DNA of 33,896 nucleotides from a virus (lineage: Duplodnaviria > Heunggongvirae > Uroviricota > Caudoviricetes). The notes beneath the pieces are model-generated. The model was not told the DNA's origin. It did no database searches and saw only the letters and a program-made list of their open reading frames with translations. Of this stretch, positions 2,126 to 33,896 are shown piece by piece; within the stretch, counting starts at the first letter, position 1; each line of letters opens with the position of its first letter. The position numbers were made by a program, and so were the translations under genes. Where the stretch lies: IMG/VR virus record IMGVR_UViG_2548876958_000018. One strand, given 5' to 3'.

Positions 2126-2401
2126 ATGAGCAAGCAAGTAACACTCATGACTGATGCGATTCCTTATCAGGAGTTCGCAAAACTAATAGGAAAATCGACA
2201 GGAGCGGTTCGTCGGATGATCGATAAAGGAAAGCTGCCTGTAATTGATATGACCGATCCACAATCAGCTTCAGGTCGTGCAGGTGAATATTGGGTATACC
2301 TTCCGGCATGGAATAACGGACTAAAACTGGCTTATGAAAGCCGACCTAAAGAGATTCGTGACGGCTGGTTGATGTGGTTAGGTCTCGGTGAACCACGTTA
2401 A
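2126..2401 (+). CDS. cox: Cox-like excisionase / switch repressor (91 aa)
   Basis: 91-aa ORF, first gene of the rightward early operon, divergent from C. Confidence 0.8.
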   Translation: MSKQVTLMTDAIPYQEFAKLIGKSTGAVRRMIDKGKLPVIDMTDPQSASGRAGEYWVYLPAWNNGLKLAYESRPKEIRDGWLMWLGLGEPR

Positions 2402-2411
2402 GGAGAACCGT

Positions 2412-2582
2412 ATGAATGAGCCTCGTTGTATTGCTCAGTTACTGCGTAACGAAAGCCCCAGGGCGATTGACTTCACCATCACCCACGGTAAGGGGCGTAA
2501 GGGAATCATTATCCGCACCAAAAAACAGAGTCCGTTAAAAAAGGCTCTGACCTTTCTGAAAAGCCGGAGGGTATGGAAATGA
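2412..2582 (+). CDS. small early protein (P2 orf78 position)
   Basis: ATG at 2412 preceded by AGGAG at 2401..2405; basic 56-aa product; the track start at 2388 lacks an RBS and overlaps the cox end. Confidence 0.45.
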   Translation: MNEPRCIAQLLRNESPRAIDFTITHGKGRKGIIIRTKKQSPLKKALTFLKSRRVWK

Positions 2583-3079
2583 CAGTGATGACGCTCAATC
2601 TCGTTGAAAAACAGCCAGCAGCTATGCGCCGGATAATTGGTAAGCATCTTGCCGTTCCTCGCTGGCAGGATACATGTGATTATTATAATCAGATGATGGA
2701 GCGCGAACGGCTAACAGTTTGCTTTCATGCGCAGTTAAAACAGCGTCACGCAACGATGCGTTTTGAAGAAATGAACGACGTCGAACGTGAACGACTGGTA
2801 TGTGCAATTGATGAATTGCGTGGGGCATTCTCAAAACGTCGTCAGGTTGGTGCAAGTGAGTATGCATATATTAGTTTCTTAACAGTCAGTCAGCGTCGTA
2901 CTTTATTTATGCATGCCGGATTGACTGAAAAAGAATTTAACCAGCCATACTGGCGAATTAATGAAGAGTCATGTTACTGGCGTGATGCTTTATTCCGTGC
3001 ATTACGTGAATTATTCAGCCTGTTTGAGTATGCACCGACAATTCTGACGTCGGTAAAACCAGAGCAATATCTGCATTAA
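2579..3079 (+). CDS. B: replication protein B-like (166 aa)
   Basis: ATG at 2579 lies 8 nt after GGAGG (2566..2570) and overlaps the upstream stop (ATGA); 166 aa matches P2 gpB; synteny cox-B-A. Confidence 0.7.
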   Translation: MTVMTLNLVEKQPAAMRRIIGKHLAVPRWQDTCDYYNQMMERERLTVCFHAQLKQRHATMRFEEMNDVERERLVCAIDELRGAFSKRRQVGASEYAYISFLTVSQRRTLFMHAGLTEKEFNQPYWRINEESCYWRDALFRALRELFSLFEYAPTILTSVKPEQYLH

Positions 3080-3142
3080 GTAATTAACCAGAGTTTTTAA
3101 CGCACTTAATCGTGCGGGGCTTCTTTTTGCCTGGAGAAAGTT

Positions 3143-3367
3143 ATGCATACAGTTTCTGAAAATCAGTGCGGTAAATACGCATTACTGCTGCAACAGGCCA
3201 GAACCGAAGCACAGGCCGACGCTGCGACGCGCTTTTCTTCTCATCTTGATGCCATGATTCGCCACATCACAAAGGCGGAGTTATCCCGCGTGGAGATAGT
3301 CGAGCTGCTCAGTCAGGAGTCGGAAAAATTTCACAATATCGGATTGTCTCGCGGGGAGGTGCTTTGA
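3143..3367 (+). CDS. small early protein (P2 orf80 position)
   Basis: 74-aa ORF with GGAG 6 nt upstream; translationally coupled to next ORF. Confidence 0.5.
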
Positions 3368-3669
3368 TGTCCTGTTCTCGTTCAGTTGTATTACTGAATA
3401 ACGCCTTAAAAATCGCCGTTATGAAAAATGGCGATTTGTCTCTTATTCAACTTGGTCTTGATAAAGAAAAACGCGAAATAACTGAGTCTGTTATCGCGAT
3501 TTATCAGAACGAATTAAACCTCCTGTCTGATGTGGTCAATTTGCTTGTTAAACGCGCTGTGTTTCACAAGCAAATCTCCTCCGTGGATGAACTGACGAAA
3601 TTAACGACAGAAATCGCCAGCTATTGCGCTGATGAATTTAAAAACCTTAACGACAAAAGGAACTGGTAA
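3367..3669 (+). CDS. small early protein (P2 orf81 position)
   Basis: ATG at 3367 after GGAGG (3355..3359); TGATG overlap with the upstream stop. Confidence 0.5.
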   Translation: MSCSRSVVLLNNALKIAVMKNGDLSLIQLGLDKEKREITESVIAIYQNELNLLSDVVNLLVKRAVFHKQISSVDELTKLTTEIASYCADEFKNLNDKRNW

Positions 3670-3893
3670 TGCCGGACAACGTAGATTTTATTCAGGCACA
3701 ACAGGCTGAATTACTGGAGCGCCAGATTAACGCGGCAAGGGTAAAACATTGCGGTGCTTCTGCGATGGTTTGCGAAGAGTGTGACGCGCCAATACCTGCT
3801 GCCCGTCGTGCGGCTTATCCGTCAGCCACGCGTTGTGTTTCCTGTCAGTCAGTTTTTGAAGCAAAAAACAAACATTACCGGAGAACGGCATGA
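3669..3893 (+). CDS. DksA/TraR-family C4 zinc-finger protein (P2 orf82 position)
   Basis: 74-aa ORF with CEEC...(17 aa)...CVSC four-cysteine motif typical of TraR/DksA zinc fingers; TAATG coupling. Confidence 0.6.
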   Translation: MPDNVDFIQAQQAELLERQINAARVKHCGASAMVCEECDAPIPAARRAAYPSATRCVSCQSVFEAKNKHYRRTA

Positions 3894-4165
3894 GTATTCG
3901 TATTGAAATTGGCGAACGTTATGTCGTTACCAGTGACAGCTTTCAGTTTATTCTCCACGAGAAAAAGAGAGCTGAAAGCGGTAAAAACGCCGGTCAGGAA
4001 TGGCTGGCGGTGGTTGGTTATTACCCGAAATTAAGCCAGCTCGTTTCCGGCCTGATGCATCACGATATTCTGACCGGAAGCGCAAAGTCTTTTGCTGATT
4101 TAAACGCGCAGGTTGAGCAACTCAGCAAGCGTTGTTCAGAGGCTTTTGGCTCATATGGCCGTTAA
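3890..4165 (+). CDS. small early protein (P2 orf83 position)
   Basis: 91-aa ORF with RBS GGAGA; stop overlaps the A start. Confidence 0.5.
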   Translation: MSIRIEIGERYVVTSDSFQFILHEKKRAESGKNAGQEWLAVVGYYPKLSQLVSGLMHHDILTGSAKSFADLNAQVEQLSKRCSEAFGSYGR

Positions 4166-6427
4166 AGCCTCCGGGCGTTTTGTCCCTCCGTCAGCATTTG
4201 CCGCAGGCACCGGTAAGACGTTTACCGGTGCTTATGCATGGAACGCGCCACGCGAGGCCGTCGGGCGCGAAAGACCCCTTACACGTGACGAGATGCGTCA
4301 GGTGCAAGGTGTTTTATCCACGATTAACCGCCTGCCTTACTTTTTGCGCTCGCTGTTTACTTCACGCTATGACTACATCCGGCGCAATAAAAGCCCGGTG
4401 CACGGGTTTTATTTCCTCACATCCACTTTTCAGCGTCGTTTATGGCCGCGCATTGAGCGTGTGAATCAGCGCCATGAAATGAACACCGACGCGTCGTTGC
4501 TGTTTCTGGCAGAGCGTGATCACTATGCGCGCCTGCCGGGAATGAATGACAAGGAGCTGAAAAAGTTTGCCGCCCGTATCTCATCGCAGCTTTTCATGAT
4601 GTATGAGGAACTCAGCGATGCCTGGGTGGATGCGCATGGCGAGAAAGAATCACTGTTTACGGATGAGGCTCAGGATCACCTGTATGGTCATGTTGCTGGC
4701 GCTGCACGAGCTTTCAATATTTCCCCTCTCTACTGGAAAAAATACCGTAAAAGACAGATGACCACGAGGCAGGCATATTCTGCCATTGCCCGTCTGTTTA
4801 ACGATGAGTGGTGGACTCATCAGCTTAAAGGCCAGCGTATGCGCTGGCATGAAGCGTTACTGATAGCTGTCGGGGAGGTCAATAAAGACCGTTCTCCTTA
4901 TGCCAGTAAACACGCCATTCGTGATGTGCGTGCGCGCCGCCAGGCAAATCTGGAATTTCTTAAATCGTGTGACCTTGAAAACAGGGAAACCGGCGAGCGC
5001 ATCGACCTTATCAGTAAGGTGATGGGCAGTATTTCTAATCCTGAAATTCGCCGGATGGAGCTGATGAACACCATTGCCGGTATTGAGCGTTACGCCGCTG
5101 CAGAGGGTGATGTGGGGATGTTTATCACGCTGACCGCGCCGTCAAAGTATCACCCGACACGTCAGGTAGGAAAAGGCGAAAGTAAAACCGTGCAGCTTAA
5201 TCACGGCTGGAACGATGAGGCATTTAATCCAAAGGATGCGCAGCGTTATCTCTGCCGTATCTGGAGCCTGATGCGCACGGCATTCAAGGATAATGATTTA
5301 CAGGTCTACGGTTTGCGTGTCGTCGAGCCACACCACGACGGAACGCCGCACTGGCATATGATGCTTTTTTGTAATTCACGCCAGCGTAACCAGATTATCG
5401 AAATCATGCGTCGCTATGCGCTCAAAGAGGATGGCGACGAAAGAGGAGCCGCGCGAAACCGTTTTCAGGCAAAACACCTTAACCGGGGCGGTGCTGCGGG
5501 ATATATCGCGAAATACATTTCAAAAAACATCGACGGCTATGCACTGGATGGTCAGCTCGATAACGACACCGGCAGGCCGCTGAAAGACACTGCAGCGGCT
5601 GTTACCGCATGGGCGTCAACGTGGCGCATCCCGCAATTTAAAACGGTTGGCCTGCCGACAATGGGGGCTTACCGTGAACTACGCAAATTGCCGCGCGGCG
5701 TCAGCATTGCTGATGAGTTTGACGAGCGCGTCGAGGCTGCACGCGCCGCCGCAGACAGTGGTGATTTTGCGTTGTATATCAGCGCGCAGGGTGGGGCACA
5801 AATGTCCCGCGCGATTGTCAGACTGTCAGAGTCGCCCGTAGCCCGTCGGATGAAGTTAACGAGTACGAGGAAGAAGTCGAGAGAGTGGTCGGCATTTACG
5901 CGCCGCATCTCGGCGCGCGTCATATTCATATCACCAGAACGACGGACTGGCGCATTGTGCCGAAAGTGCCGGTCGTTGAGCCTTTGACTTTAAAAAGCGG
6001 CATCGCCGCGCCTCGGAGTCCTGTCAATAACTGTGGAAAGCTCACCGGTAGTGATGTTTCGTTACCGGCTCCCACACCTTCTGAGCACGCCGCCGCAGTG
6101 CTTAATCTGGTTGATGACGGTGTTATCGAATGGAATGACCAGGAGGTCGTGAGGGCGCTCAGGGGCGCATTAAAACACGACCTGAGAACACCAAACCGTC
6201 AGCAAAGAAGCGGAAGCCCGTTAAAACCGCATGAAATAGCGCCATCGGCCAGACTGACCCGGTCGGAACGAATGCAAATTACCCGTATCCGCGTTGACCT
6301 TGCTCAGAACGGTATCAGGCCGCAGCGATGGGAGCTTGAGGCGCTGGCGCGTGGGGCAACTGTAAATTACGACGGGAGAAGCTTCAGTTATCCTGTTATA
6401 TGTGATTGGAGAGCGTATGAATTATGA
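4155..6427 (+). pseudogene. A: rolling-circle replication initiator A (HUH endonuclease), interrupted by a -1 frameshift
   Basis: ATG at 4155 overlaps the upstream stop (ATGGCCGTTAA). HUH-type motif TPHWHMMLF and catalytic tyrosine motif GYIAKYISK are present. The reading frame switches between 5765 and 5987: the upstream frame runs to a stop at 5987, while the downstream frame (GTG 5885..6427) is open from 5765. Combined length of about 757 codons is close to P2 gpA (761 aa, from memory). Confidence 0.8.
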
Positions 6428-6482
6428 GATTGTGATAAAAAGTAAATAATTAATATAATGCAATTGCTTAACTGTTTTAAAA

Positions 6483-6513
6483 GGGACAACGTAGTTGTGA
6501 ACTATATTGTCCC
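6483..6513. terminator. hairpin between convergent A and endonuclease genes (possible bidirectional terminator)
   Basis: GGGACAA (6483..6489) pairs with TTGTCCC (6507..6513) across a 17-nt loop in an AT-rich spacer; no clean U-run, so weak. Confidence 0.25.
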
Positions 6514-6520
6514 GGGAGTA

Positions 6521-7576
6521 TTAATTTTTAAATATGGATTGTATGTATTCTATAGTGCTATCTTTAGCTCTGATGTCTTTTAAAGTGTTATTTATGAAAT
6601 CTATTATTCTGTCATTACTTAATAGTGGCGATAACGCATAACATGTTGTTGTGAATGTCATGACGTCACTAAAGCTTAGTGAAACACCTTTTGTCGCAGC
6701 GTTCTCAATCGCAAGAGACTCATCAATATCTAAGTTTGTTGCTCTTGGCCCTTTAAGGAAGATAACTTTTGAAATCCCGGATGCAGATGCTTTTGAAACG
6801 GCGTGATTAACATCTTGATAATTAAATGGTTTGTCTTTCACTTCTATAGAAAGGAAAACTATATCATCATGATATACATCTATGTCCAGTATCTCTTTTG
6901 AGGAGCTACCGGCCTGATTGACGGGATGTGCTTTTATTATCCATCCTCTTTGTTCACCTAATAAATGTAACGAAATTGCGGCAGCAATCGCGCATGTTTC
7001 TCCATCACAAGGATGAGATATAATATTATAAATAATCTTATGGAAATCAAAATTAATTGAGTTCGGCGTTATAACTCTATTGGTTCGCTGTAGGGTAAAA
7101 TATAATGCAATAACAAGCATTTCATAAGCTAAGGTTTGGGTTGTTGCTGCATGTAATATATCAATTGAAAGTTGTTGTAAAACCTTATCATTTCCTCTGC
7201 GCACAGGGTTATCAGAGGAGTGGAGCATGTAACGAGCTGGTTTATTTAGAAATGGCTCATTTGATGCGCCTAACTTACCCTCTAAAAATGGGCCTTCTAC
7301 TTTGCCTACTATTACCGAATGACATAAACTCCTTGCATCATAGGCTCCGTCTACGGGGGCATTAGCTTGTAAAGCCAGAGGGTTAACTCTAGGGTCTGTT
7401 GCTTTTGCAAGTAAACCAGTAATAAGTATATATCTGTATGTAAGGTGGGTGCCTAAAATTACATTTTGAATGGAGACCCATTGATTATTTGTTTTGTAAT
7501 CAGTTAATTTTTTTGCATCGTTGATTGCATTTATAATTACATTATAGGCTTGCTCATGATTTACTAATACTTTCAT
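6521..7576 (-). CDS. putative Type II restriction endonuclease (351 aa)
   Basis: AT-rich ORF directly downstream of, and overlapping by 23 bp, the HTH controller gene; divergent from the methyltransferase; PD-(D/E)xK-like signature DIDVYHDDIVFLSIEVKDK; RBS AAGGA 5 nt before the ATG. Confidence 0.6.
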   Translation of the reverse strand: MKVLVNHEQAYNVIINAINDAKKLTDYKTNNQWVSIQNVILGTHLTYRYILITGLLAKATDPRVNPLALQANAPVDGAYDARSLCHSVIVGKVEGPFLEGKLGASNEPFLNKPARYMLHSSDNPVRRGNDKVLQQLSIDILHAATTQTLAYEMLVIALYFTLQRTNRVITPNSINFDFHKIIYNIISHPCDGETCAIAAAISLHLLGEQRGWIIKAHPVNQAGSSSKEILDIDVYHDDIVFLSIEVKDKPFNYQDVNHAVSKASASGISKVIFLKGPRATNLDIDESLAIENAATKGVSLSFSDVMTFTTTCYALSPLLSNDRIIDFINNTLKDIRAKDSTIEYIQSIFKN

Positions 7577-7868
7577 AGGTGTCCTTTAGTAAGATATCCA
7601 TTGGTAGACCTAATCGGCTTGCAACCACCTCTAATAATTCAAATAGTTCTAAAGCATCTAATCGCCTTTCAAAGCTTTCGATTTTAGATATATCTGATTG
7701 TGATAATCCTAGAAAAATGGCCAATTCTGACTGCGAAAGAGAAGCTTCTTTGCGTAGTTTGGTGAGAAGCTGGACTAGGCACCTGTATCTATGATCATGT
7801 ATAGTTGGTTGTCGTTTTGCCATGTGGTTTAGAAGGTGATTGATTGTGTGTCGATCCTTACCTATCAT
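7554..7868 (-). CDS. controller (C) protein of the R-M system, XRE-family HTH
   Basis: 104-aa ORF with helix-turn-helix segment LSQSELAIFLGLSQSDISKIE; sits in the gap between divergent R and M genes, upstream of and overlapping R; alternative start at Met16 (7823). Confidence 0.65.
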   Translation of the reverse strand: MIGKDRHTINHLLNHMAKRQPTIHDHRYRCLVQLLTKLRKEASLSQSELAIFLGLSQSDISKIESFERRLDALELFELLEVVASRLGLPMDILLKDTYESISKS

Positions 7869-7873
7869 TGGTT

Positions 7874-7892
7874 TTATTCCAAAATCGAATAA
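7874..7892. promoter_or_regulatory. candidate operator (C-box-like inverted repeat) between controller and methyltransferase starts
   Basis: TTATTC-N7-GAATAA dyad at 7874..7892, immediately upstream of the controller start (7868) and before the methyltransferase GTG (7907). Confidence 0.3.
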
Positions 7893-7906
7893 TTGGTGCT
7901 AAAGAA

Positions 7907-8998
7907 GTGAACAAAATTTCAGCGGTGAGCTTATTTACTGGGGCAGGAGGGATGGATGTCGGTTTCTCTAATGCCGGGTTCCGAACAGTTTGGGCCAATG
8001 ATATAGATAAGGATGCATGTGATACATTTAAGCTTAATCATGAATCACCTGTTTTTTGTGGTGATATTGATGAGATGCTAAGTGAATTGTCTGGGCTGAA
8101 AAATATAGGTTGTGTTTTTGGTGGGCCTCCATGCCAAGGATTTTCTGTGGCAGGGAAAATGGACGCTCATGATCCACGTAGTAAGCTGGTTATGTCATTC
8201 ATGCGGGCGGTGGATATAATTCAACCAGAATGCTTTGTTATGGAGAATGTTAAGGCTTTAGCACAGTTGTCCAAATTTGAACCAGTTAGGTGTGAACTGT
8301 TTAAGATGGCTGAAAAGTCAGGCTATCGTTCAGCCTTGCTGGTGCTGAATTCTAAAGATTTTGGCGTTCCTCAGAATAGGGAACGTATGTTTTTTATAGG
8401 GTTTCGTTCCGAAAATGATGTGAAACGAGTTGAGGCGGCGATAAAAAAATACCAATATCTTTCGCCAACAGTTGGTGAGATTATTCGGCCTTTAGGGCGA
8501 GCGGGTAATCCAAATAATTCAAGAGTCTGTAATGCAAGGATTACAAATGCTGCTAAGCCAGTATTACGGAAGTCACCTTACGCGGGAATGATGTTTAACG
8601 GGCAGGGAAGACCAATTAACCCGAATGGGTATGCTTCAACTATAGCTGCTTCTATGGGGGGGAATAGGACACCAATTATTGATGAAGAACACCTTTATGA
8701 TGGCTCAACAAGTTATGTTGAGACTTATCATAATCATCTAATGAATGGTGGTGAGCCAAAAGATATGCACGATGTACCTAGTCGTTTACGTCGACTAACG
8801 ATAGATGAGGCTCTTTTGATTCAAACATTCCCGAGTAATTATGTCTTTGTGGGGAAAAATTCGTCAATTTGGCGTCAGATAGGGAATGCTGTGCCTTGTA
8901 AATTGGCGCAGGCTGTTGCTGCAGGGGTTTTGGATGTCCTTACTGGTAAAACTATTAATGTTCAAAAGAGTCAAACAGAGTTGAGTTTGAATTCGTAA
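7907..8998 (+). CDS. DNA (cytosine-5)-methyltransferase
   Basis: Motif I LFTGAGGMDVGF, motif IV GPPCQGFS, motif VI ENV, motif VIII QNRERMFFIG. Start taken as the in-frame GTG at 7907, which leaves a 330-bp gap to the R start; the track's TTG at 7844 (RBS-like AAGGTG 5 nt upstream) is an alternative that would overlap the controller gene. Confidence 0.9.
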   Translation: MNKISAVSLFTGAGGMDVGFSNAGFRTVWANDIDKDACDTFKLNHESPVFCGDIDEMLSELSGLKNIGCVFGGPPCQGFSVAGKMDAHDPRSKLVMSFMRAVDIIQPECFVMENVKALAQLSKFEPVRCELFKMAEKSGYRSALLVLNSKDFGVPQNRERMFFIGFRSENDVKRVEAAIKKYQYLSPTVGEIIRPLGRAGNPNNSRVCNARITNAAKPVLRKSPYAGMMFNGQGRPINPNGYASTIAASMGGNRTPIIDEEHLYDGSTSYVETYHNHLMNGGEPKDMHDVPSRLRRLTIDEALLIQTFPSNYVFVGKNSSIWRQIGNAVPCKLAQAVAAGVLDVLTGKTINVQKSQTELSLNS

Positions 8999-9154
8999 AA
9001 CGGATCACATTTTCAAACCGATGGATGCAGAATTTAACATTGCTGCATGAGTTTGCATCTTGAAATCATAAGCTGTACTGCTTAGCTTGACCAGAATTGA
9101 TGTGGGTAAGAAGTGGTTATGCACCCGCATTAAAACCGCCCCATTAAGCGGGCG

Positions 9155-9173
9155 GGCGAGGCGGGGAAAGCAC
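9155..9173. other. cos cohesive-end site (19-nt)
   Basis: GGCGAGGCGGGGAAAGCAC matches my recollection of the P2 cohesive end; located beside the 3' end of the portal gene, as at the P2 genome left end. Confidence 0.55.
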
Positions 9174-9342
9174 TGCGCGCTGGCGGTGGTGCTGATTTTA
9201 TTTTTTCAGCGTCTGAGCGCGTCGTGATGGCGTTTAGATTGTTCGCCGGGGCGTTGGTGTGTCTGCGGGCTGTTTTGTGCGGTGGTGAGCGTGTGAGGGC
9301 GTGATGGCGGGGTGTAAAAAAGCCGCCCACAGGCGGCGATGT

Positions 9343-12149: not shown

Positions 12150-12322
12150 GAATACCTCGCCGTGATGAATACACGGCAAGGCTACTGAGTCGCGCCCCGC
12201 GATTCGCTAAGGTGCTGTTGTGTCAGTGATAAGCCATCCGGGACTGATGGCGGAGGATGCGCATCGTCGGGAAACTGATGCCGACATGTGACTCCTCTAA
12301 TCACTATTCAGGACTCCTGACA

Positions 12323-13176
12323 ATGGCAAAAAAAGTCTCAAAATTCTTTCGTATCGGCGTTGAGGGTGACACCTGTGACGGGCGTGTCATCAGTGCGCAG
12401 GATATTCAGGAAATGGCCGAAACCTTTGACCCGCGAGTCTATGGTTGCCGCATTAACCTGGAACATCTGCGCGGCATCCTGCCTGACGGTATTTTTAAGC
12501 GTTATGGCGATGTGGCCGAACTGAAGGCCGAAAAGATTGACGATGATTCGGCGCTGAAAGGCAAATGGGCGCTGTTTGCGAAAATCACCCCGACCGATGA
12601 CCTTATCGCGATGAACAAGGCCGCGCAGAAGGTCTACACCTCAATGGAAATTCAGCCGAACTTTGCCAACACCGGCAAATGTTATCTGGTGGGTCTGGCC
12701 GTCACCGATGACCCGGCAAGCCTCGGCACGGAATACCTGGAATTCTGCCGCACGGCAAAACACAACCCCTGAACCGCTTCAAATTAAGCCCTGAAAACCT
12801 GATTTCAGTGGCAACGCCTGTTGAGCTGGAATTTGAAGACCTGCCTGAAACCGTGTTCACCGCCCTGACCGAAAAGGTGAAATCCATTTTTGGCCGCAAA
12901 CAGGCCAGCGATGACGCCCGTCTGAATGACGTGCATGAAGCGGTGACCGCTGTTGCTGAACATGTGCAGGAAAAACTGAGCGCCACTGAGCAGCGCCTCG
13001 CTGAGATGGAAACCGCCTTTTCCGCACTTAAGCAGGATGTGACTGACAGGGCGGATGAAACCAGTCAGGCATTCACCCGCCTGAAAAACAGTCTCGACCA
13101 CACCGAAAGTCTGACCCAGCAGCGCCGCAGTAAAGCCACCGGCGGTGGCGGTGACGCCCTGATGACGAACTGCTGA
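12323..13176 (+). pseudogene. O: capsid scaffold protein O, interrupted by a -1 frameshift
   Basis: ATG at 12323 (MAKKVSKFF...). Frame stops at TGA 12770..12772 and continues in the -1 frame from 12772 (track ORF 12808..13176). The span is 854 bp, one base short of 284 codons plus stop; the C4 run at 12766..12769 is the likely indel site. Confidence 0.8.
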
Positions 13177-18077: not shown

Positions 18078-18522
18078 GTTTAAGCGTTTTGAAGACCGGC
18101 TGACCGGGCTGATTGAATCGCTGTCACCGTCAGGGCGTCGGCGACTGAGCGCCGAACTGGCGAAACGTCTGCGTCAGAGTCAGCAGCGTCGGGTGATGGC
18201 ACAGAAAGCCCCGGACGGCACACCCTACGCGCCACGTCAGCAGCAGAGCGCCAGAAAAAAGACCGGTCGCGTTAAGCGAAAAATGTTTGCGAAACTTATC
18301 ACCAGTCGTTTTTTGCATATCCGCGCCAGCCCGGAACAGGCATCAATGGAATTTTACGGCGGGAAGTCGCCGAAAATCGCCAGTGTGCATCAGTTCGGTC
18401 TGTCGGAAGAAACCCGGAAAGACGGTAAGAAAATTGATTATCCGGCGCGTCCTCTGCTCGGCTTTACCGGTGAGGATGTGCAGATGATTGAAGAGATTAT
18501 CCTGGCTCACCTTGAGCGTTAG
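18070..18522 (+). CDS. S: tail completion protein S (150 aa)
   Basis: 150-aa ORF overlapping the R stop; size and order match P2 gpS. Confidence 0.7.
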   Translation: MNEFKRFEDRLTGLIESLSPSGRRRLSAELAKRLRQSQQRRVMAQKAPDGTPYAPRQQQSARKKTGRVKRKMFAKLITSRFLHIRASPEQASMEFYGGKSPKIASVHQFGLSEETRKDGKKIDYPARPLLGFTGEDVQMIEEIILAHLER

Positions 18523-18551
18523 TTTTATCCAGGCAGAGGCTGATGCGCAAT

Positions 18552-18588
18552 TAAACATTGAGCGGCCATGCTGGTCGCTCAATGTTTA
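18552..18588. terminator. long hairpin between convergent S and moron genes
   Basis: AAACATTGAGCG (18553..18564) pairs perfectly with CGCTCAATGTTT (18576..18587) across an 11-nt loop; no strong U-run, so terminator function uncertain. Confidence 0.35.
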
Positions 18589-18593
18589 GAGGT

Positions 18594-19379
18594 TTATGAG
18601 TGATTTTTATTTGATGCTTTGTATTCTACAACCTTCTTATTGGCGTAAAGGAATTTTGTATATGACAGGAATATAACCAGACCTGAAATGAAATAGATGA
18701 GGGATATTATTAATAATGCTTTTTTTTGGCTGTTATTATCTTTAATCTCCTGACTTAACCATTCCGAGTCCTCCTCGTTTAGCTGTAAGAGCTTATTGCA
18801 GGCGATCTCAGGAAGTGTGTCTTTTATAAATACGTTTCGTAGCCTCTTGCAATCGGCAAGGCTATAAGTTTTATTGAATTCAACTGTTTTATTGTTGAAG
18901 GATAAAAGAACTTTGTCACTATAAACATAGTACATCATATTTTTATATGGTATGCCTATGGCATCTCTTACTATAACGGATTGTTTGTTGTGTATATAAC
19001 ATGCGAAGAGAATATAAATAATGCTGGACAGAATTACAATTATTGTTTTAATTATGTGTGGTGGTTTTGTTATGTCACCCCAGAAGCGAGTAAGAAAAAA
19101 ATACGATGTTTTTAGTTTTCCATCAATCAGCCCCTGCTGTATCATTCTCACATCTTCGATGCCTGATACATTGATTCCGTTAATTATTTTAAATAGTTGA
19201 ATGTCGCGCCATTTTTTGTCGAGCATTTTTAACTTTCTGTCTGAATACTCAAAATTGAAATGATGTGCAATAAACCTCATAAGATTACTTTTACCAAAGG
19301 TAATAAATGTTAATGCTATTAATAAAAATAGATACAAAGAGATAAACCACCACGCATTAGTCACATTATCACTGAACAT
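18594..19379 (-). CDS. AT-rich moron: 261-aa membrane protein with three predicted TM helices, unknown function (P2 orf30 position)
   Basis: Antisense to the flanking tail operon; strongly AT-rich unlike neighbours; hydrophobic segments near residues 10-28, 112-130 and 221-240; no recognisable catalytic motif. Confidence 0.7.
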   Translation of the reverse strand: MFSDNVTNAWWFISLYLFLLIALTFITFGKSNLMRFIAHHFNFEYSDRKLKMLDKKWRDIQLFKIINGINVSGIEDVRMIQQGLIDGKLKTSYFFLTRFWGDITKPPHIIKTIIVILSSIIYILFACYIHNKQSVIVRDAIGIPYKNMMYYVYSDKVLLSFNNKTVEFNKTYSLADCKRLRNVFIKDTLPEIACNKLLQLNEEDSEWLSQEIKDNNSQKKALLIISLIYFISGLVIFLSYTKFLYANKKVVEYKASNKNHS

Positions 19380-19462
19380 TACGCTCTCCTCGAATGTTGT
19401 ATGGTCGTTCTACAAATGAATCCAGATAGCATAACTTTTATATATTGTGCAATCTCACACGC

Positions 19463-20098
19463 ATGAACACTCTCGCAAATATTCAGGAACTCGCGCGCGC
19501 ACTGCGCAACATGATTCGTACCGGCCTTGTCGTCGAAACCAACCTTAAAGCCGGTCGCTGCCGTGTGCAGACCGGTGGCATGTGCACTGACTGGCTTCAG
19601 TGGCTGACCCATCGTGCCGGACGTTCGCGCACATGGTGGGCACCTTCCGTGGGGGAGCAGGTGCTGATTCTGGCTGTGGGCGGTGAACTCGACACGGCGT
19701 TCGTTCTGCCGGGGATTTATTCCGGCGATAACCCCGCGCCGTCTGCGTCGGCGGATGCCCTGCATATCCGTTTCCCTGACGGGGCGGTGATTGAGTATGA
19801 ACCCGAAACCAGTGCACTCACGGTAAGCGGAATTAAAACGGCCAGCGTGACGGCTTCTGATTCTGTTACTGCCACGGTGCCGGTGGTCATGGTGAAAGCA
19901 TCAACCCGCGTCACCCTGGACACACCGGAGGTGGTCTGCACCAACAGGCTGATTACCGGCACGCTGGAAGTGCAGAAGGGCGGGACGATGCACGGCAACA
20001 TTGAACACACCGGCGGTGAACTCTCATCAAACGGTAAGGTACTGCATACCCATAAACACCCCGGCGACAGCGGCGGCACAACCGGGAGCCCTCTATGA
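19463..20098 (+). CDS. V: baseplate central spike protein (211 aa)
   Basis: ATG at 19463 gives 211 aa; first gene of the V-W-J-I-H-G operon. Confidence 0.8.
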   Translation: MNTLANIQELARALRNMIRTGLVVETNLKAGRCRVQTGGMCTDWLQWLTHRAGRSRTWWAPSVGEQVLILAVGGELDTAFVLPGIYSGDNPAPSASADALHIRFPDGAVIEYEPETSALTVSGIKTASVTASDSVTATVPVVMVKASTRVTLDTPEVVCTNRLITGTLEVQKGGTMHGNIEHTGGELSSNGKVLHTHKHPGDSGGTTGSPL

Positions 20099-23989: not shown

Positions 23990-24517
23990 ATGATGCACTT
24001 AAAGAACATAAAAGCGGGTAACACTAAAACACTGGAACAGTATGAGTTAACAAAGAAGCATGGAGTCATCTGGCTTTACACTGAAGACGGGAAAAACTGG
24101 TATGAGGAAGTGAAGAACTTTCAGTCAGACACAATAAAGATTGTTTACGACGAGAATAATATAATTGTCGGCATCACCCGAGATGCTTCAACGCTTAACC
24201 CTGAAGGTTTTAGCGTTGTCGAGGTTCCTGATATTACTGCCAACCGACGTGCTGATGACTCAGGTAAATGGATGTTTAAGGATGGTGCCGTGATTAAGCG
24301 GATTTATACGGCAGACGAACAGCAGCAACTGGCAGAATCACAAAAGGCAACTTTGCTTTCCGAAGCCGAATCCGTGATTTTGCCGCTGGAGCGCGCTGTC
24401 AGGCTGAATATGGCAACAGATGAGGAACGCAGCCGACTGGAAGCATGGGAACGCTACAGCGTTCTGGTCAGCCGTGTGGATCCTGCAAATCCTGAATGGC
24501 CGGAAATGCCGCAATAA
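23990..24517 (+). CDS. G: tail fiber assembly chaperone (175 aa)
   Basis: 175-aa ORF immediately after the fiber gene; P2 gpG position. Confidence 0.75.
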
Positions 24518-24738
24518 GTTGTATAAGCTCTGGTGTGAGATTACATATCTATGGCACAGAGTAAAGCCTAATCTGACAGGCCGCTCTGTGTCTGGAGTAG
24601 ATTTTAGTAAAGCATTATTTTATTAGTGCAAATTCTAAACAATACATTTTATGTATATGATATCCTGCGGACTTTAATGATTTGGTTTAGGCTAACCAGA
24701 TAACACTGAAGGAATATTTTTGATAATTAAGGTGCGGT

Positions 24739-25332
24739 ATGTTTACTAAGCGACGATTAAAAAATATTAACTGGGAGGCAAGTTCAGTGATTCTTGCTAT
24801 GGTTCTCTTTGCTGGAAATATATTTTATACAAATCATCGTGATGATATAAGCATGGAGGCTGAGAGAGACAGTATCAGAACAATGTTTGCATATGAAATC
24901 GCTAATAACCATCGCGCTCTCACCTTTCTTGATAAAACGAGAAATATTGGCTTTGACGAAAATTCGGAGCATTTTGTTGGCGAGCCTTTTGCCATTAATG
25001 TCAAATCATCAGGGGGACCTCGCTTACAGATTGCATTAAACCAGACTGATAAAGTGTTTAAATCATACTTCAGCGAATTAAGTAAGCTTGATAAAGAGGA
25101 TGTTACTCTTCTTATGGACTATTACCATGAGCAAAGCATCCTGCTGGAGCGTGTAAAATCTACGTTACAGAAGATGAAAAGTGGTAATGATATTAAAGTT
25201 GATATTGATGGTTACTTATTAGAAGAACACTTCATGAATGAGCTTAATCTTTCTAATATTTTGCTTAAACGCTATAGCTATTTATTATCACAGCACGCTA
25301 AAGAACATAAAACAAAAGATTTACATAATTGA
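24739..25332 (+). CDS. AT-rich moron: 197-aa protein with one N-terminal TM anchor, unknown function (P2 Z/fun position)
   Basis: Preceded by a 220-bp AT-rich spacer; N-terminal hydrophobic segment SSVILAMVLFAGNIFY, then a charged, probably helical domain; lies between G and FI. Confidence 0.7.
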   Translation: MFTKRRLKNINWEASSVILAMVLFAGNIFYTNHRDDISMEAERDSIRTMFAYEIANNHRALTFLDKTRNIGFDENSEHFVGEPFAINVKSSGGPRLQIALNQTDKVFKSYFSELSKLDKEDVTLLMDYYHEQSILLERVKSTLQKMKSGNDIKVDIDGYLLEEHFMNELNLSNILLKRYSYLLSQHAKEHKTKDLHN

Positions 25333-25539
25333 TAATCTGCTAATGGTTATTCATGGGGTAACTATGTTTTATATGTAATCCAGCTCAGATGAATTATTGA
25401 TTCTGGATAATAACCGCAGAGCGGCATATACCCTGACAGGCAAATGTCCGCTTCTTGCTCAAAGCAGACTGTCAGATTTGATAACTTTTGGGCTATGTAA
25501 ACTGTCAGTCGGAAAATGAGTGTGTACAAATCAGGACAG

Positions 25540-32362: not shown

Positions 32363-32390
32363 TAAAAAATAAGCCCGTGTAAGGGAGATT
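32363..32390. repeat. attR core: 28-bp direct repeat overlapping the cyaR 3' terminator
   Basis: identical to 476..503. Confidence 0.85.
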
Positions 32391-32534: not shown

Positions 32535-33896
32535 TCACTTACCGTGGGGATTACGCGTGGTTTCCCCGGAGAAATTACGCATCAGCAGCGCGTAATTGAG
32601 CTCAAGATCCTGCGGGACCGGGAGCCACACAGTATAACCATCGCCTGGTGCTATCGGCATAGCTTCGCCTTTGGCGTTTTCCATGTGCTCAAGGGTAAAA
32701 TTAATGTTGCCTTGCGGCGTCATCAGCTCAAGGCTGTCGCCAACGGAGAATTTATTTTTCACCGCTACCGCCGCGAGGTCCCCCTTGCGCTCACCGGTAA
32801 ACTCACCAACAAACTGCTGGCGGTCAGAAACTGAATAACCGTATTCGTAGTTCTGATAATCGTCGTGAGTATGACGACGCAGGAAACCTTCGGTATAGCC
32901 ACGATGCGCCAGACCTTCCAGAGTTTCCAGCAGGCTGGTATCGAACGGTTTTCCCGCAGCGGCGTCATCGATAGCTTTGCGGTAAACCTGTGCGGTGCGT
33001 GCACAATAGTAGAAAGATTTGGTACGACCTTCGATTTTCAGCGAATGCACGCCCATTTTGGTCAGGCGTTCTACATGGGCGATGGCGCGCAGATCTTTCG
33101 AGTTCATGATGTAAGTGCCGTGCTCATCTTCAAACGCGGTCATATACTCGCCCGGACGCTGGGCCTCTTCGATCATAAACACTTTGTCGGTTGGTGCGCC
33201 GATACCCAGCGTCGGCTCAACATTTTGCACCGGAATCGGCTCGTACTTGTGTACGATGTTGCCAACATCATCTTCTTTCCCTTCCTGGACGTTGTACTCC
33301 CAGCGGCAGGCGTTGGTGCAGGTGCCCTGGTTCGGGTCGCGCTTGTTGATATAGCCAGAGAGCAGGCAGCGACCGGAGTAGGCCATGCACAGCGCGCCGT
33401 GAACGAAGATCTCGATCTCCATATCCGGCACCTGATTGCGGATCTCTTCAATCTCTTCCAGCGACAGCTCGCGAGAGAGGATCACGCGGGTCAGGCCCAT
33501 TTGCTGCCAGAATTTCACCGTCGCCCAGTTCACGGCGTTAGCCTGCACCGAAAGGTGGATCGGCATTTCAGGGAAGTGCTCACGCACCAGCATAATCAGC
33601 CCTGGATCGGACATAATCAGCGCATCCGGCCCCATTTCCACCACCGGTTTCAGGTCACGGATAAAGGTTTTCAGCTTGGCGTTGTGCGGTGCAATGTTGA
33701 CCACGACATAAAACTTTTTCCCCAGCGCGTGGGCTTCATTGATGCCGAGCTGAAGATTTTCGTGGTTGAATTCGTTGTTGCGCACACGCAGGGAATAACG
33801 CGGCTGGCCCGCATAAACAGCATCTGCGCCATAAGCGAAAGCGTAACGCATATTTTTCAGCGTTCCCGCCGGGGAAAGGAGTTCCGGTTTAAACAT
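32535..33896 (-). CDS. yegQ: U32-family peptidase YegQ (453 aa), host gene
   Basis: Complete 453-aa ORF starting with ATG at the window edge (MFKPELLSPAGTLKNMRYAFAYGADAVYAGQPRYSLR...); GC-typical host codon usage; next to cyaR. Confidence 0.85.
   Translation of the reverse strand: MFKPELLSPAGTLKNMRYAFAYGADAVYAGQPRYSLRVRNNEFNHENLQLGINEAHALGKKFYVVVNIAPHNAKLKTFIRDLKPVVEMGPDALIMSDPGLIMLVREHFPEMPIHLSVQANAVNWATVKFWQQMGLTRVILSRELSLEEIEEIRNQVPDMEIEIFVHGALCMAYSGRCLLSGYINKRDPNQGTCTNACRWEYNVQEGKEDDVGNIVHKYEPIPVQNVEPTLGIGAPTDKVFMIEEAQRPGEYMTAFEDEHGTYIMNSKDLRAIAHVERLTKMGVHSLKIEGRTKSFYYCARTAQVYRKAIDDAAAGKPFDTSLLETLEGLAHRGYTEGFLRRHTHDDYQNYEYGYSVSDRQQFVGEFTGERKGDLAAVAVKNKFSVGDSLELMTPQGNINFTLEHMENAKGEAMPIAPGDGYTVWLPVPQDLELNYALLMRNFSGETTRNPHGK

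Follow-up and report, generated by a model that had tools for sequence, protein, structure and literature searches.

The window, which is the whole 33,896-nucleotide stretch of DNA analysed here, carries a whole P2-like prophage from attL to attR (positions 477 to 32390), as delimited by att cores and gene order. The exact 27-nt P2 attP core is found at 477 to 503 and again at 32364 to 32390, and the genes follow the order int-C-cox-B-A-(RM)-cos-Q-P-O-N...D-ogr, where RM is a restriction-modification (R-M) cassette. The prophage is flanked by yegR and by a Peptidase_U32 gene (yegQ). The left landmark of the cassette is P2 gene A for the replication endonuclease (4155 to 6427, plus strand), which is collinear with the intact 756-aa A protein of strain 13TMH22 and is frameshifted relative to it by a 2-bp insertion (CA) at 5797 to 5798, the open reading frame (ORF) being broken into 4113 to 5987 and 5885 to 6427. 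Gene O of the prophage is likewise frameshifted. The right landmark is the P2 cos cohesive-end 19-mer (9155 to 9173, plus strand), an exact match to GGCGAGGCGGGGAAAGCAC, which NC_001895 labels as cosL/cosR. For an ORF in the Z/fun slot (24739 to 25332) and for the orf30 homologue, Pfam and PADLOC searches were uninformative.

The annotation of P2 puts orf91-tin-old between gene A and cos, and the initial annotation rightly took this segment to be the slot in which the cassette lies. Set against P2 and three other P2-like phages with other cargo (tin/old, Dcm plus paraMORC3, and others), the P2-like homology ends at 6380 to 6396, at least 31 nt before the gene A stop (6427), and restarts at 9114 to 9140. 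The homology breakpoints and the GC content define a variable cargo segment at 6397 to 9113, which carries the cassette in place of orf91-tin-old. Its AT-richness is borne out by a GC content of 38.5% over 6428 to 9154 compared with about 55% in the flanks; per 500-bp window, the cassette has 36 to 41% and the flanks 50 to 59%. The P2 genes in this gpA-cos/gpQ slot are likewise AT-rich, non-essential cargo and exclude other phages, but they encode Old (an ATPase nuclease) and Tin, whereas the cargo here is a classical R-M system. The gpA-gpQ region has been described as a hotspot of anti-phage cargo with 1,650 gene arrangements (Rousset et al. 2022, PMC9122126), and together with the position between A and cos this upholds the view of a prophage-encoded defence module at a known hotspot.

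Three ORFs are present in the ORF listing where the initial annotation had placed them. The first, ecoT38IR (6521 to 7576, minus strand), encodes a Type IIP restriction endonuclease of 351 residues with a PD-(D/E)XK fold. The protein is identical over 351/351 residues to the EcoT38I restriction endonuclease (PDB ID 7E8R, chain A) and matches the RE_SacI family (Pfam ID PF09566) over its full length with an E value of 1.9e-76. The D...EVK signature noticed in the raw sequence corresponds to D233...E245-V-K247 and is invariant in 120 homologues. An AlphaFold2 model built from a 120-sequence alignment reached a pLDDT of 95 (40.5 from the single sequence) and supports the proposed nuclease fold, with an alpha-beta-beta-beta-alpha-beta core that carries the D...(D/E)xK catalytic motif. 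The full-length match places the protein with the SacI/BanII-type enzymes, although typical RE_SacI family members in our comparison are only 38 to 45% identical to it. The SacI site GAGCTC is a subset of GRGCYC; unlike it, the EcoT38I site known from the literature is degenerate.

On the opposite strand, ecoT38IM (7907 to 8998, plus strand) encodes a C5-cytosine DNA methyltransferase. The mechanically called ORF runs from 7844 to 8998, and starting it at GTG 7907 gives a protein of 363 residues that exactly matches a UniProt entry filed under Peduovirus P2 (accession no. Q83VT0_9CAUD), which does not itself bear the name EcoT38I. The protein matches the Pfam family PF00145 at 1.3e-66 (225.7 bits, cut-off 22) as well as TIGR00675, and its best solved relative is M.HaeIII. 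The motifs I (FTGAGG), IV (PPCQ), VI (ENV) and VIII (QNRER), which had been read from the sequence, are all confirmed, and motif X (GNAVP) is also present; in the 363-aa protein they lie at residues 10, 75, 113, 156 and 326, respectively. The published rare codons of EcoT38I comprise AUA at codon 15 of the endonuclease and GGG at codons 12 and 15 of the methyltransferase (PMC6456624, table 3). Codon 15 of the endonuclease gene is AUA here, and the two GGG codons of the methyltransferase gene fall into register only from GTG 7907, which, with the Q83VT0 match, supports the start codon proposed.

The third gene, ecoT38IC (minus strand), encodes a controller protein with an XRE-type helix-turn-helix (HTH) domain. 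The mechanically called ORF (7554 to 7868) starts at ATG 7868 and has 104 codons, but comparison of homologous sequences indicates that translation probably begins at ATG 7823, which would give a protein of 89 residues (7554 to 7823). ATG 7823 is kept in six systems, two of which have AGG or ATT in place of ATG 7868, and indels occur between the two positions. Residues 21 to 104 of the long ORF are identical (84/84) to PDB ID 2EF8, chain A. The protein matches the Pfam family HTH_3, and its matches to the solved controllers C.BclI and C.AhdI are weak (E values of 0.015 and 0.046). The gene is located directly upstream of ecoT38IR in the same orientation, an arrangement kept in the six homologous systems, and overlaps it by 23 bp, as claimed.

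The methyltransferase gene and the C-R unit are thus head to head, with the controller gene inside the gap and overlapping the nuclease gene, and the cassette is situated between A and Q of a P2-type prophage. With the methyltransferase starting at GTG 7907, the gap between the two enzyme genes is exactly 330 bp, as had been computed, and the EcoT38I system is reported to have a gap of 330 nt (attributed to Kita et al., 2003). This system is said to have been cloned, characterised and mapped to the P2-prophage slot by Kita, Kawakami and Tanaka in 2003 (J Bacteriol 185:2296), its chromosomal site, locI, reportedly being beside yegR/yegQ, as here. The nuclease, the methyltransferase and the layout are the same as in EcoT38I of Escherichia coli TH38, with no difference at the protein level, and both cassettes lie in a P2 prophage between A and Q/cos. 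The prophages are less alike: the one described here is near-complete and has frameshifted A and O genes, while those of the TH38 strains are, to judge by the title of that 2003 work, variously deleted and defective.

We conclude, with a probability of about 0.96, that the cassette is the EcoT38I Type II R-M system, which a P2-like prophage inserted at yegR/yegQ carries in its cos-proximal hotspot as lysogenic-conversion cargo. The name, which had been offered tentatively, is borne out by the 7E8R and Q83VT0 identities and by the rare codons, and we found no evidence contradicting it. The reading as a controller-regulated Type II system is upheld, since a nuclease of the PD-(D/E)XK type is combined with an m5C methyltransferase and with an HTH controller that has a conserved operator upstream. 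GRGCYC is reportedly the recognition sequence of EcoT38I, again from the 2003 work, and because the proteins are 100% identical, cleavage of this sequence and its cytosine methylation are implied for the enzymes encoded here. The prophage appears defective, and the supposed prophage-encoded defence may for this reason be, in practice, a chromosomal R-M system.

The dyad TTATTC-N7-GAATAA, previously pointed out as a candidate binding site, is present at 7874 to 7892 and is the sole perfect copy in the window. It is located 51 nt upstream of ATG 7823, with the -10 of the M-proximal promoter-like site on one side and the methyltransferase start codon on the other. In a gap as AT-rich as this one, a 6+6 dyad is within chance expectation (one observed, shuffle mean 0.79, at least one in 48% of shuffles), and its significance comes from conservation across systems rather than from its occurrence alone. 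The 16-nt core (7876 to 7891) is invariant in six systems, whose nucleases are 57 to 100% identical, amid variable intergenic DNA, and the operator sequence TATTCGATTTTGGAAT is unchanged across them, suggesting a C-box operator. Allowing up to 3 mismatches revealed no second, weaker copy in the vicinity, nor was a double box with a central GTG of the C.PvuII/C.AhdI class found. Since the operator is 51 nt from the conserved ATG, a leaderless controller mRNA is improbable; no sequence stood out convincingly as the -10 of a C-R promoter.

A single palindromic operator is shared with the C.EcoRV-like and C.EcoO109I-like systems (motifs 7/8/10), as is the small XRE-type gene upstream of the nuclease gene, co-transcribed with it, and the location of the operator in a divergent M/C-R control region (Sorokin et al. 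2009, PMC2632904). The TATTC-N7-GAATA sequence of the operator, by contrast, appears specific to the EcoT38I clade. EcoO109I likewise resides on a P2/P4-type element.

Towards the methyltransferase gene, a putative promoter TTGATT-17-TATCAT is located at 7840 to 7868 (plus strand). The -10 of this site and the "ATG" at 7868 are reverse complements; in the homologues, the -35 always keeps its TTG, and the -10 remains TA-rich. Within the controller ORF, a 32-nt island (7774 to 7805) shows invariance at the nucleotide level, in stretches of 15 and 16 nt, and includes the palindrome ATGATCAT. All 10 third codon positions in the island are invariant, versus 13/73 in the rest of the gene (Fisher p 4.7e-7), a pattern that points to strong purifying selection on synonymous sites. 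The island coincides with a second promoter-like site on the plus strand, TAGGCA-18-TATAGT (7776 to 7805), and would most likely hold the main methyltransferase promoter, opposing the C-R transcript. We found no prior description of the island in the papers covered by our search.

In the mechanism we propose, M.EcoT38I, a monomeric C5-cytosine methyltransferase, would methylate the GRGCYC sites of the host, the specificity being taken from the literature, and R.EcoT38I, the SacI-family PD-(D/E)XK enzyme, would cut unmethylated GRGCYC in incoming DNA. The controller would be translated from the nuclease transcript, with which its gene overlaps, and would bind the single operator in the divergent control region. 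This operator would be placed downstream of the M-direction promoter or promoters and upstream of the C-R unit, and with this placement rising controller levels would switch C-R on and the methyltransferase down. The resulting delay of the nuclease would let a new host be methylated first. A dual activator/repressor role of the controller in R-M expression is reportedly known from the work of Kita et al. in 2003. Binding at the dyad, the sites of the promoters and the way in which regulation runs are inferred here or taken from the literature.

Alternatively, the product of the HTH gene could be an antitoxin, or an XRE-type repressor of phage or host origin, unconnected with R-M control. The database matches lean this way: the best NCBIfam matches, far below the cut-off, are HipB/Y4mF antitoxins and the RstR phage repressor, and the top PADLOC match is HTH_VI, the matches to the PADLOC Control_protein models being weak (2e-4). 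However, the gene is always found between the methyltransferase and nuclease genes, overlapping the latter, and it accompanies them in non-phage contexts in Enterobacter and Pseudoalteromonas (our loci L006 and L010), where both the M-C-R order and the C-R overlap are kept. The dyad upstream of it is conserved along with the R-M module, and the prophage already has its own immunity repressor C (1712 to 2011) and cox (2126 to 2401). C.EcoT38I is moreover among the REBASE-listed C proteins for which an upstream motif has been predicted (PMC2632904). A repressor or antitoxin is therefore exceedingly improbable, and we retain the assignment as an R-M controller. A silent relic, with genes that are intact and unexpressed or expressed as an orphan methyltransferase only, would fit the decay indicated by the two prophage frameshifts; it is nevertheless very unlikely, since each of the three ORFs has its full length and encodes a product identical to a characterised or crystallised protein, the control region is at least 99.5% identical to that in 19 other genomes, and an intact nuclease beside a silent methyltransferase would be lethal.

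A different question is whether the cassette is mainly a selfish addiction module that stabilises itself and the nearby prophage DNA through post-segregational killing, with defence being secondary. Intact cassettes in visibly decaying prophages speak for this, as in the present one with its broken A and O genes and in that of strain 13TMH22, where IS3 splits the integrase gene and IS26 cuts the tail region. In Pseudescherichia, a homologous M-C-R module lies between yegQ and yegS, with nothing of P2 beside it except remnants, about 60 nt long, of cos and gene A. Addiction and defence are compatible, however, as the same enzymes do both, and anti-phage systems that have been validated by experiment are concentrated in this slot (PMC9122126). 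We consider a primarily addictive role possible but rather doubtful, and keep to the reading of the cassette as EcoT38I carried by the prophage as lysogenic-conversion cargo.

As a discovery, the locus is of limited importance: EcoT38I has been known since 2003, the nuclease and controller sequences are crystallised (PDB), and the gpA-cos hotspot has been known since 2022. The presence of this system in the P2 slot is already known, and its rediscovery is correct but ordinary. The locus is valuable as a positive control, because the raw sequence gave the R-M cassette, the controller, the GTG start and the system name. The side observations are increments to a known system. For R-M regulation, the conserved operator, the synonymously constrained island in the controller gene and the likely shorter controller are useful; for phage-borne defence, these are the avoidance of GRGCYC in P2-like phages and the R-M system as the last survivor of a decayed prophage.

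Among 5,426 complete E. coli genomes, 20 contain the cassette at 99.5% identity or more, in every case adjoined by gene A. A megablast comparison with 50,697 phage records gave no match, the known occurrences of the cassette being only prophages in bacterial genomes. Homologous M-C-R modules, with nuclease identities down to 57%, are likewise found between A and cos in Serratia and in further enterobacteria. The P2-like genomes contain 0 to 5 GRGCYC sites per approximately 33 kb, compared with 14 to 28 expected, a depletion stronger than that of any other among 64 comparable degenerate hexamers. As GRGCYC is almost purged from them, P2-like phages could carry, deliver and survive EcoT38I without self-restriction, and the R-M module may persist after the decay of its prophage, as the remnant in Pseudescherichia illustrates. 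A joint reading, in which EcoT38I-family modules and P2-like phages would be long-term partners instead of being associated by chance and the main methyltransferase promoter would lie in the island, is tentative, and we would not expect all of it to hold. The idea that the depletion is specific to cassette carriers was rejected, as P2 itself and PhiR44_1 have zero sites. The P2-like genomes avoid 6-bp palindromes in general (360 observed versus 565 expected), with GRGCYC being the extreme case.

The cassette in the slot between P2 gene A and cos is the already published EcoT38I restriction-modification (R-M) system, in its published location, and the observations on regulation and site avoidance described here are modest increments to a known system. 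The endonuclease R is an intact PD-(D/E)XK nuclease. It is identical over 351 of 351 residues to an entry deposited as "EcoT38I restriction endonuclease" (PDB ID 7E8R), an enzyme that has been characterised. The methyltransferase M, when read from GTG 7907 (363 aa), equals UniProt entry Q83VT0 residue for residue, an entry filed under phage P2, and the helix-turn-helix (HTH) controller protein C is identical to the chain in PDB ID 2EF8 (84/84 residues). The defining paper on EcoT38I is that of Kita, Kawakami, and Tanaka (2003, J Bacteriol 185:2296), which reportedly gives the specificity as GRGCYC and describes a dual role of C. The identity can also be checked independently against a published tabulation of rare codons in R-M genes of E. 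coli (PMC6456624), in which the EcoT38I entry has AUA as codon 15 of R, and GGG as both codon 12 and codon 15 of M. The genes in the window reproduce this pattern exactly, in the case of M only with the start at GTG 7907. The EcoT38I name, which the initial annotation had suggested, is thus correct, both by the sequence identity of R and M and by the rare codons.

The ORF list confirms the coordinates claimed for the three genes. R (6521-7576, 351 aa) and C (7554-7868, 104 aa) lie on the minus strand, and M (7844-8998, 384 aa from TTG) on the plus strand. The overlap of the small HTH ORF with the 351-aa ORF measures 23 bp as described, and taking GTG 7907 as the M start leaves exactly 330 bp between the divergent R and M start codons. 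The AT-richness that had been noticed corresponds to a GC content of 36 to 41%, compared with 50 to 59% on either side (500-bp windows). R belongs to the SacI restriction endonuclease family (Pfam ID PF09566, 1.9e-76) and M to the C5 cytosine methylase family (Pfam ID PF00145, 1.3e-66), and C matches HTH_3, with NCBIfam and PADLOC in agreement with Pfam. M is an intact m5C methyltransferase, in which all of the motifs claimed (I, IV, VI, and VIII) are found, plus motif X. The D...EVK signature of R is present as D233, E245, and K247. The structure of R, predicted from 120 aligned SacI-family homologues, has a pLDDT of 95, and residues D231, D233, E245, K247, D248, and K249 are invariant in 120/120 homologues. 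The model and the invariant catalytic residues uphold the PD-(D/E)xK reading, and the nuclease fold on which the R-M interpretation depended is present.

The window spans an entire P2-like prophage with its host flanks, inserted between yegR (1-318) on the left and the Peptidase_U32 gene yegQ (32535-33896) on the right. Exact copies of the 27-nt P2 attP core at 477-503 and 32364-32390 bound the prophage, whose gene order is that of P2. According to its annotation, P2 itself has orf91, tin, and old in the stretch from gene A to the right cohesive end, and the homology breakpoints agree with the proposal that this slot is occupied here by the cassette. Homology to P2 and three other P2-like phages ends at about 6396, 31 nt short of the gene A stop codon, and homology to P2-like phages is back at 9114-9140, to the left of an exact match to the P2 cos 19-mer (9155-9173). 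The P2-like phages compared hold unrelated cargo in the slot, for example, Dcm plus paraMORC3. The slot had been called a known hotspot, in line with Rousset et al. (2022, PMC9122126), who describe anti-phage systems as concentrated in a hotspot at the cos-proximal gpA-gpQ region and give 1,650 gene arrangements for its 18,150 occurrences.

The dyad TTATTC-N7-GAATAA, proposed to be the binding site of the controller, is found at 7874-7892. Taken alone, a perfect 6+6 dyad is not surprising in the AT-rich 330-bp gap, where one is observed against a shuffle mean of 0.79 and at least one occurs in 48% of shuffles. Therefore, we aligned the control regions of homologous modules with R identities of 79, 74, 65, 60, and 57%. 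The order of M followed by C-R, with C overlapping R, is kept in all five homologues, in P2-like prophages as well as in non-phage contexts, and two nucleotide islands are absolutely conserved. Across the six aligned systems, island 1 is TATTCGATTTTGGAAT (7876-7891), the dyad core. It stands out from surrounding intergenic DNA that varies, as expected of a C-box operator, making TATTCGATTTTGGAAT a putative operator. The dyad is located 51 nt upstream of the conserved start of C, with the promoter-like site or sites directed toward M on one side and the M start codon on the other. The window holds no other perfect copy, and no weaker one lies nearby at up to 3 mismatches, and the putative operator is hence grouped with the single-palindrome C systems, unlike the double box of C.PvuII (PMC2632904).

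Island 2 (7774-7805) comprises 32 nt within the C reading frame and is invariant in the six systems, the R proteins of which are 57 to 100% identical. Its third codon positions are invariant in 10/10 cases, compared with 13/73 elsewhere in C (Fisher P = 4.7e-7). The island overlaps a plus-strand promoter-like site facing M (TAGGCA-18-TATAGT) and contains a GATC site within the palindrome ATGATCAT. The conservation, together with the promoter-like match, suggests an M promoter embedded in the C gene. A second promoter-like site in the M direction (TTGATT-17-TATCAT, 7840-7868) ends just before the dyad, and its -10-like TATCAT holds the reverse complement of the "ATG" at 7868. This ATG is lost in two homologues, being AGG in the metagenomic contig and ATT in Serratia fonticola, and the stretch between ATG 7868 and ATG 7823 contains indels among the homologues, whereas ATG 7823 and everything downstream are conserved. 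This pattern makes ATG 7823 the most likely start of C, with a predicted length of 89 aa. This start agrees with the chain that was crystallised, which spans residues 21-104 of the long C ORF; the databases contain the C protein in 104-, 89-, and 73-aa versions.

The HTH protein C is conserved, and its translation is coupled to that of R. By analogy with C-controlled systems generally (PMC2632904), and in line with what Kita et al. reportedly described, M would be made first in a new host cell, from its own promoter or promoters, while C would build up slowly and bind the palindrome. The bound C may then activate the weak C-R promoter and obstruct M transcription, with restriction setting in only once the chromosome is protected. 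We rejected an unrelated phage repressor as the identity of the HTH protein, as the prophage carries C and cox genes of its own and the HTH gene accompanies M and R outside phages.

That the cassette is a silent relic is unlikely, given that its proteins are full-length and identical to characterised or crystallised ones and that the control region is conserved. Some support exists for the cassette being mainly an addiction module, a role compatible with defence, as it stays intact within decaying prophages and also in a Pseudescherichia locus with only scraps of P2 around it. The homologous module there (GCA_032004355.1, L007 4368-7298; R 65% identical) has the M-C-R arrangement and is located between yegQ and yegS without a prophage. 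Its flanks contain fragments of about 60 nt that match cos (window 9119-9180) and gene A (window 5976-6036) of P2. Judging from these remnants, a P2 prophage at this same chromosomal site seems to have decayed, with the module surviving last.

Further EcoT38I-like modules are found in the same A-to-Q/cos slot of a Serratia fonticola prophage and of a metagenomic P2-like contig, and in Yersinia aldovae, where the module adjoins ogr/D instead; their R proteins are 57 to 79% identical to that of the window. The cassette itself occurs at an identity of at least 99.5% in 20 of 5,426 complete E. coli genomes, always on the chromosome and always adjoining gene A, and the search of the phage collection gave no match. 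E. coli 13TMH22 (L001 12925-15199 and 37146-39809) has the same EcoT38I-bearing prophage, with the integrase interrupted by IS3 and, in place of the tail region, an IS26-flanked aac(3)-IIe resistance segment adjoining oqxB; its R-M cassette is 100% identical to that of the window. In four complete E. coli assemblies (NZ_AP027697.1, NZ_CP146507.1, NZ_CP062876.1, and NZ_CP075640.1), the cassette is at exactly 2244-4944, meaning that these records begin at base 1 of P2 gene A, an artefact that presumably arises when chromosomes are rotated automatically to start at a "replication" gene.

The 32-kb prophage contains a single GRGCYC site and the host yegQ another, compared with 18 to 28 expected. 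P2 and PhiR44_1 have none, and two other relatives have 5 (L003) and 1 (L005), with 14 to 28 expected across the set including the window. In both P2 and the window, no other of the 64 degenerate hexamer families sharing its shape (NxNNxN) is as depleted as GRGCYC. The depletion is a lineage trait independent of cassette carriage. The non-palindromic members GAGCCC and GGGCTC are likewise missing, so general palindrome avoidance is not the full explanation.

Relative to two close relatives, gene A carries a +2-bp frameshift (CA insertion, 5797-5798; ORFs 4113-5987 and 5885-6427) and gene O a -1-bp frameshift (about 12766-12769; ORFs 12257-12772 and 12808-13176). Both genes are essential in P2. 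Either the prophage is defective or these are sequence errors. Between S and V, in an AT-rich island (18500-19500), a 261-aa ORF (18594-19379, minus strand) has the place and size of P2 orf30, which is non-essential, and yields no significant family match in Pfam or PADLOC. A 197-aa ORF (24739-25332, plus strand), in an AT-rich island (24500-25500), occupies the second cargo slot of P2, Z/fun, which lies between G and FI. For this ORF, searches of Pfam and PADLOC gave no match; phage PhiR44_1 has an ORF of the same size at this position, annotated as hypothetical.
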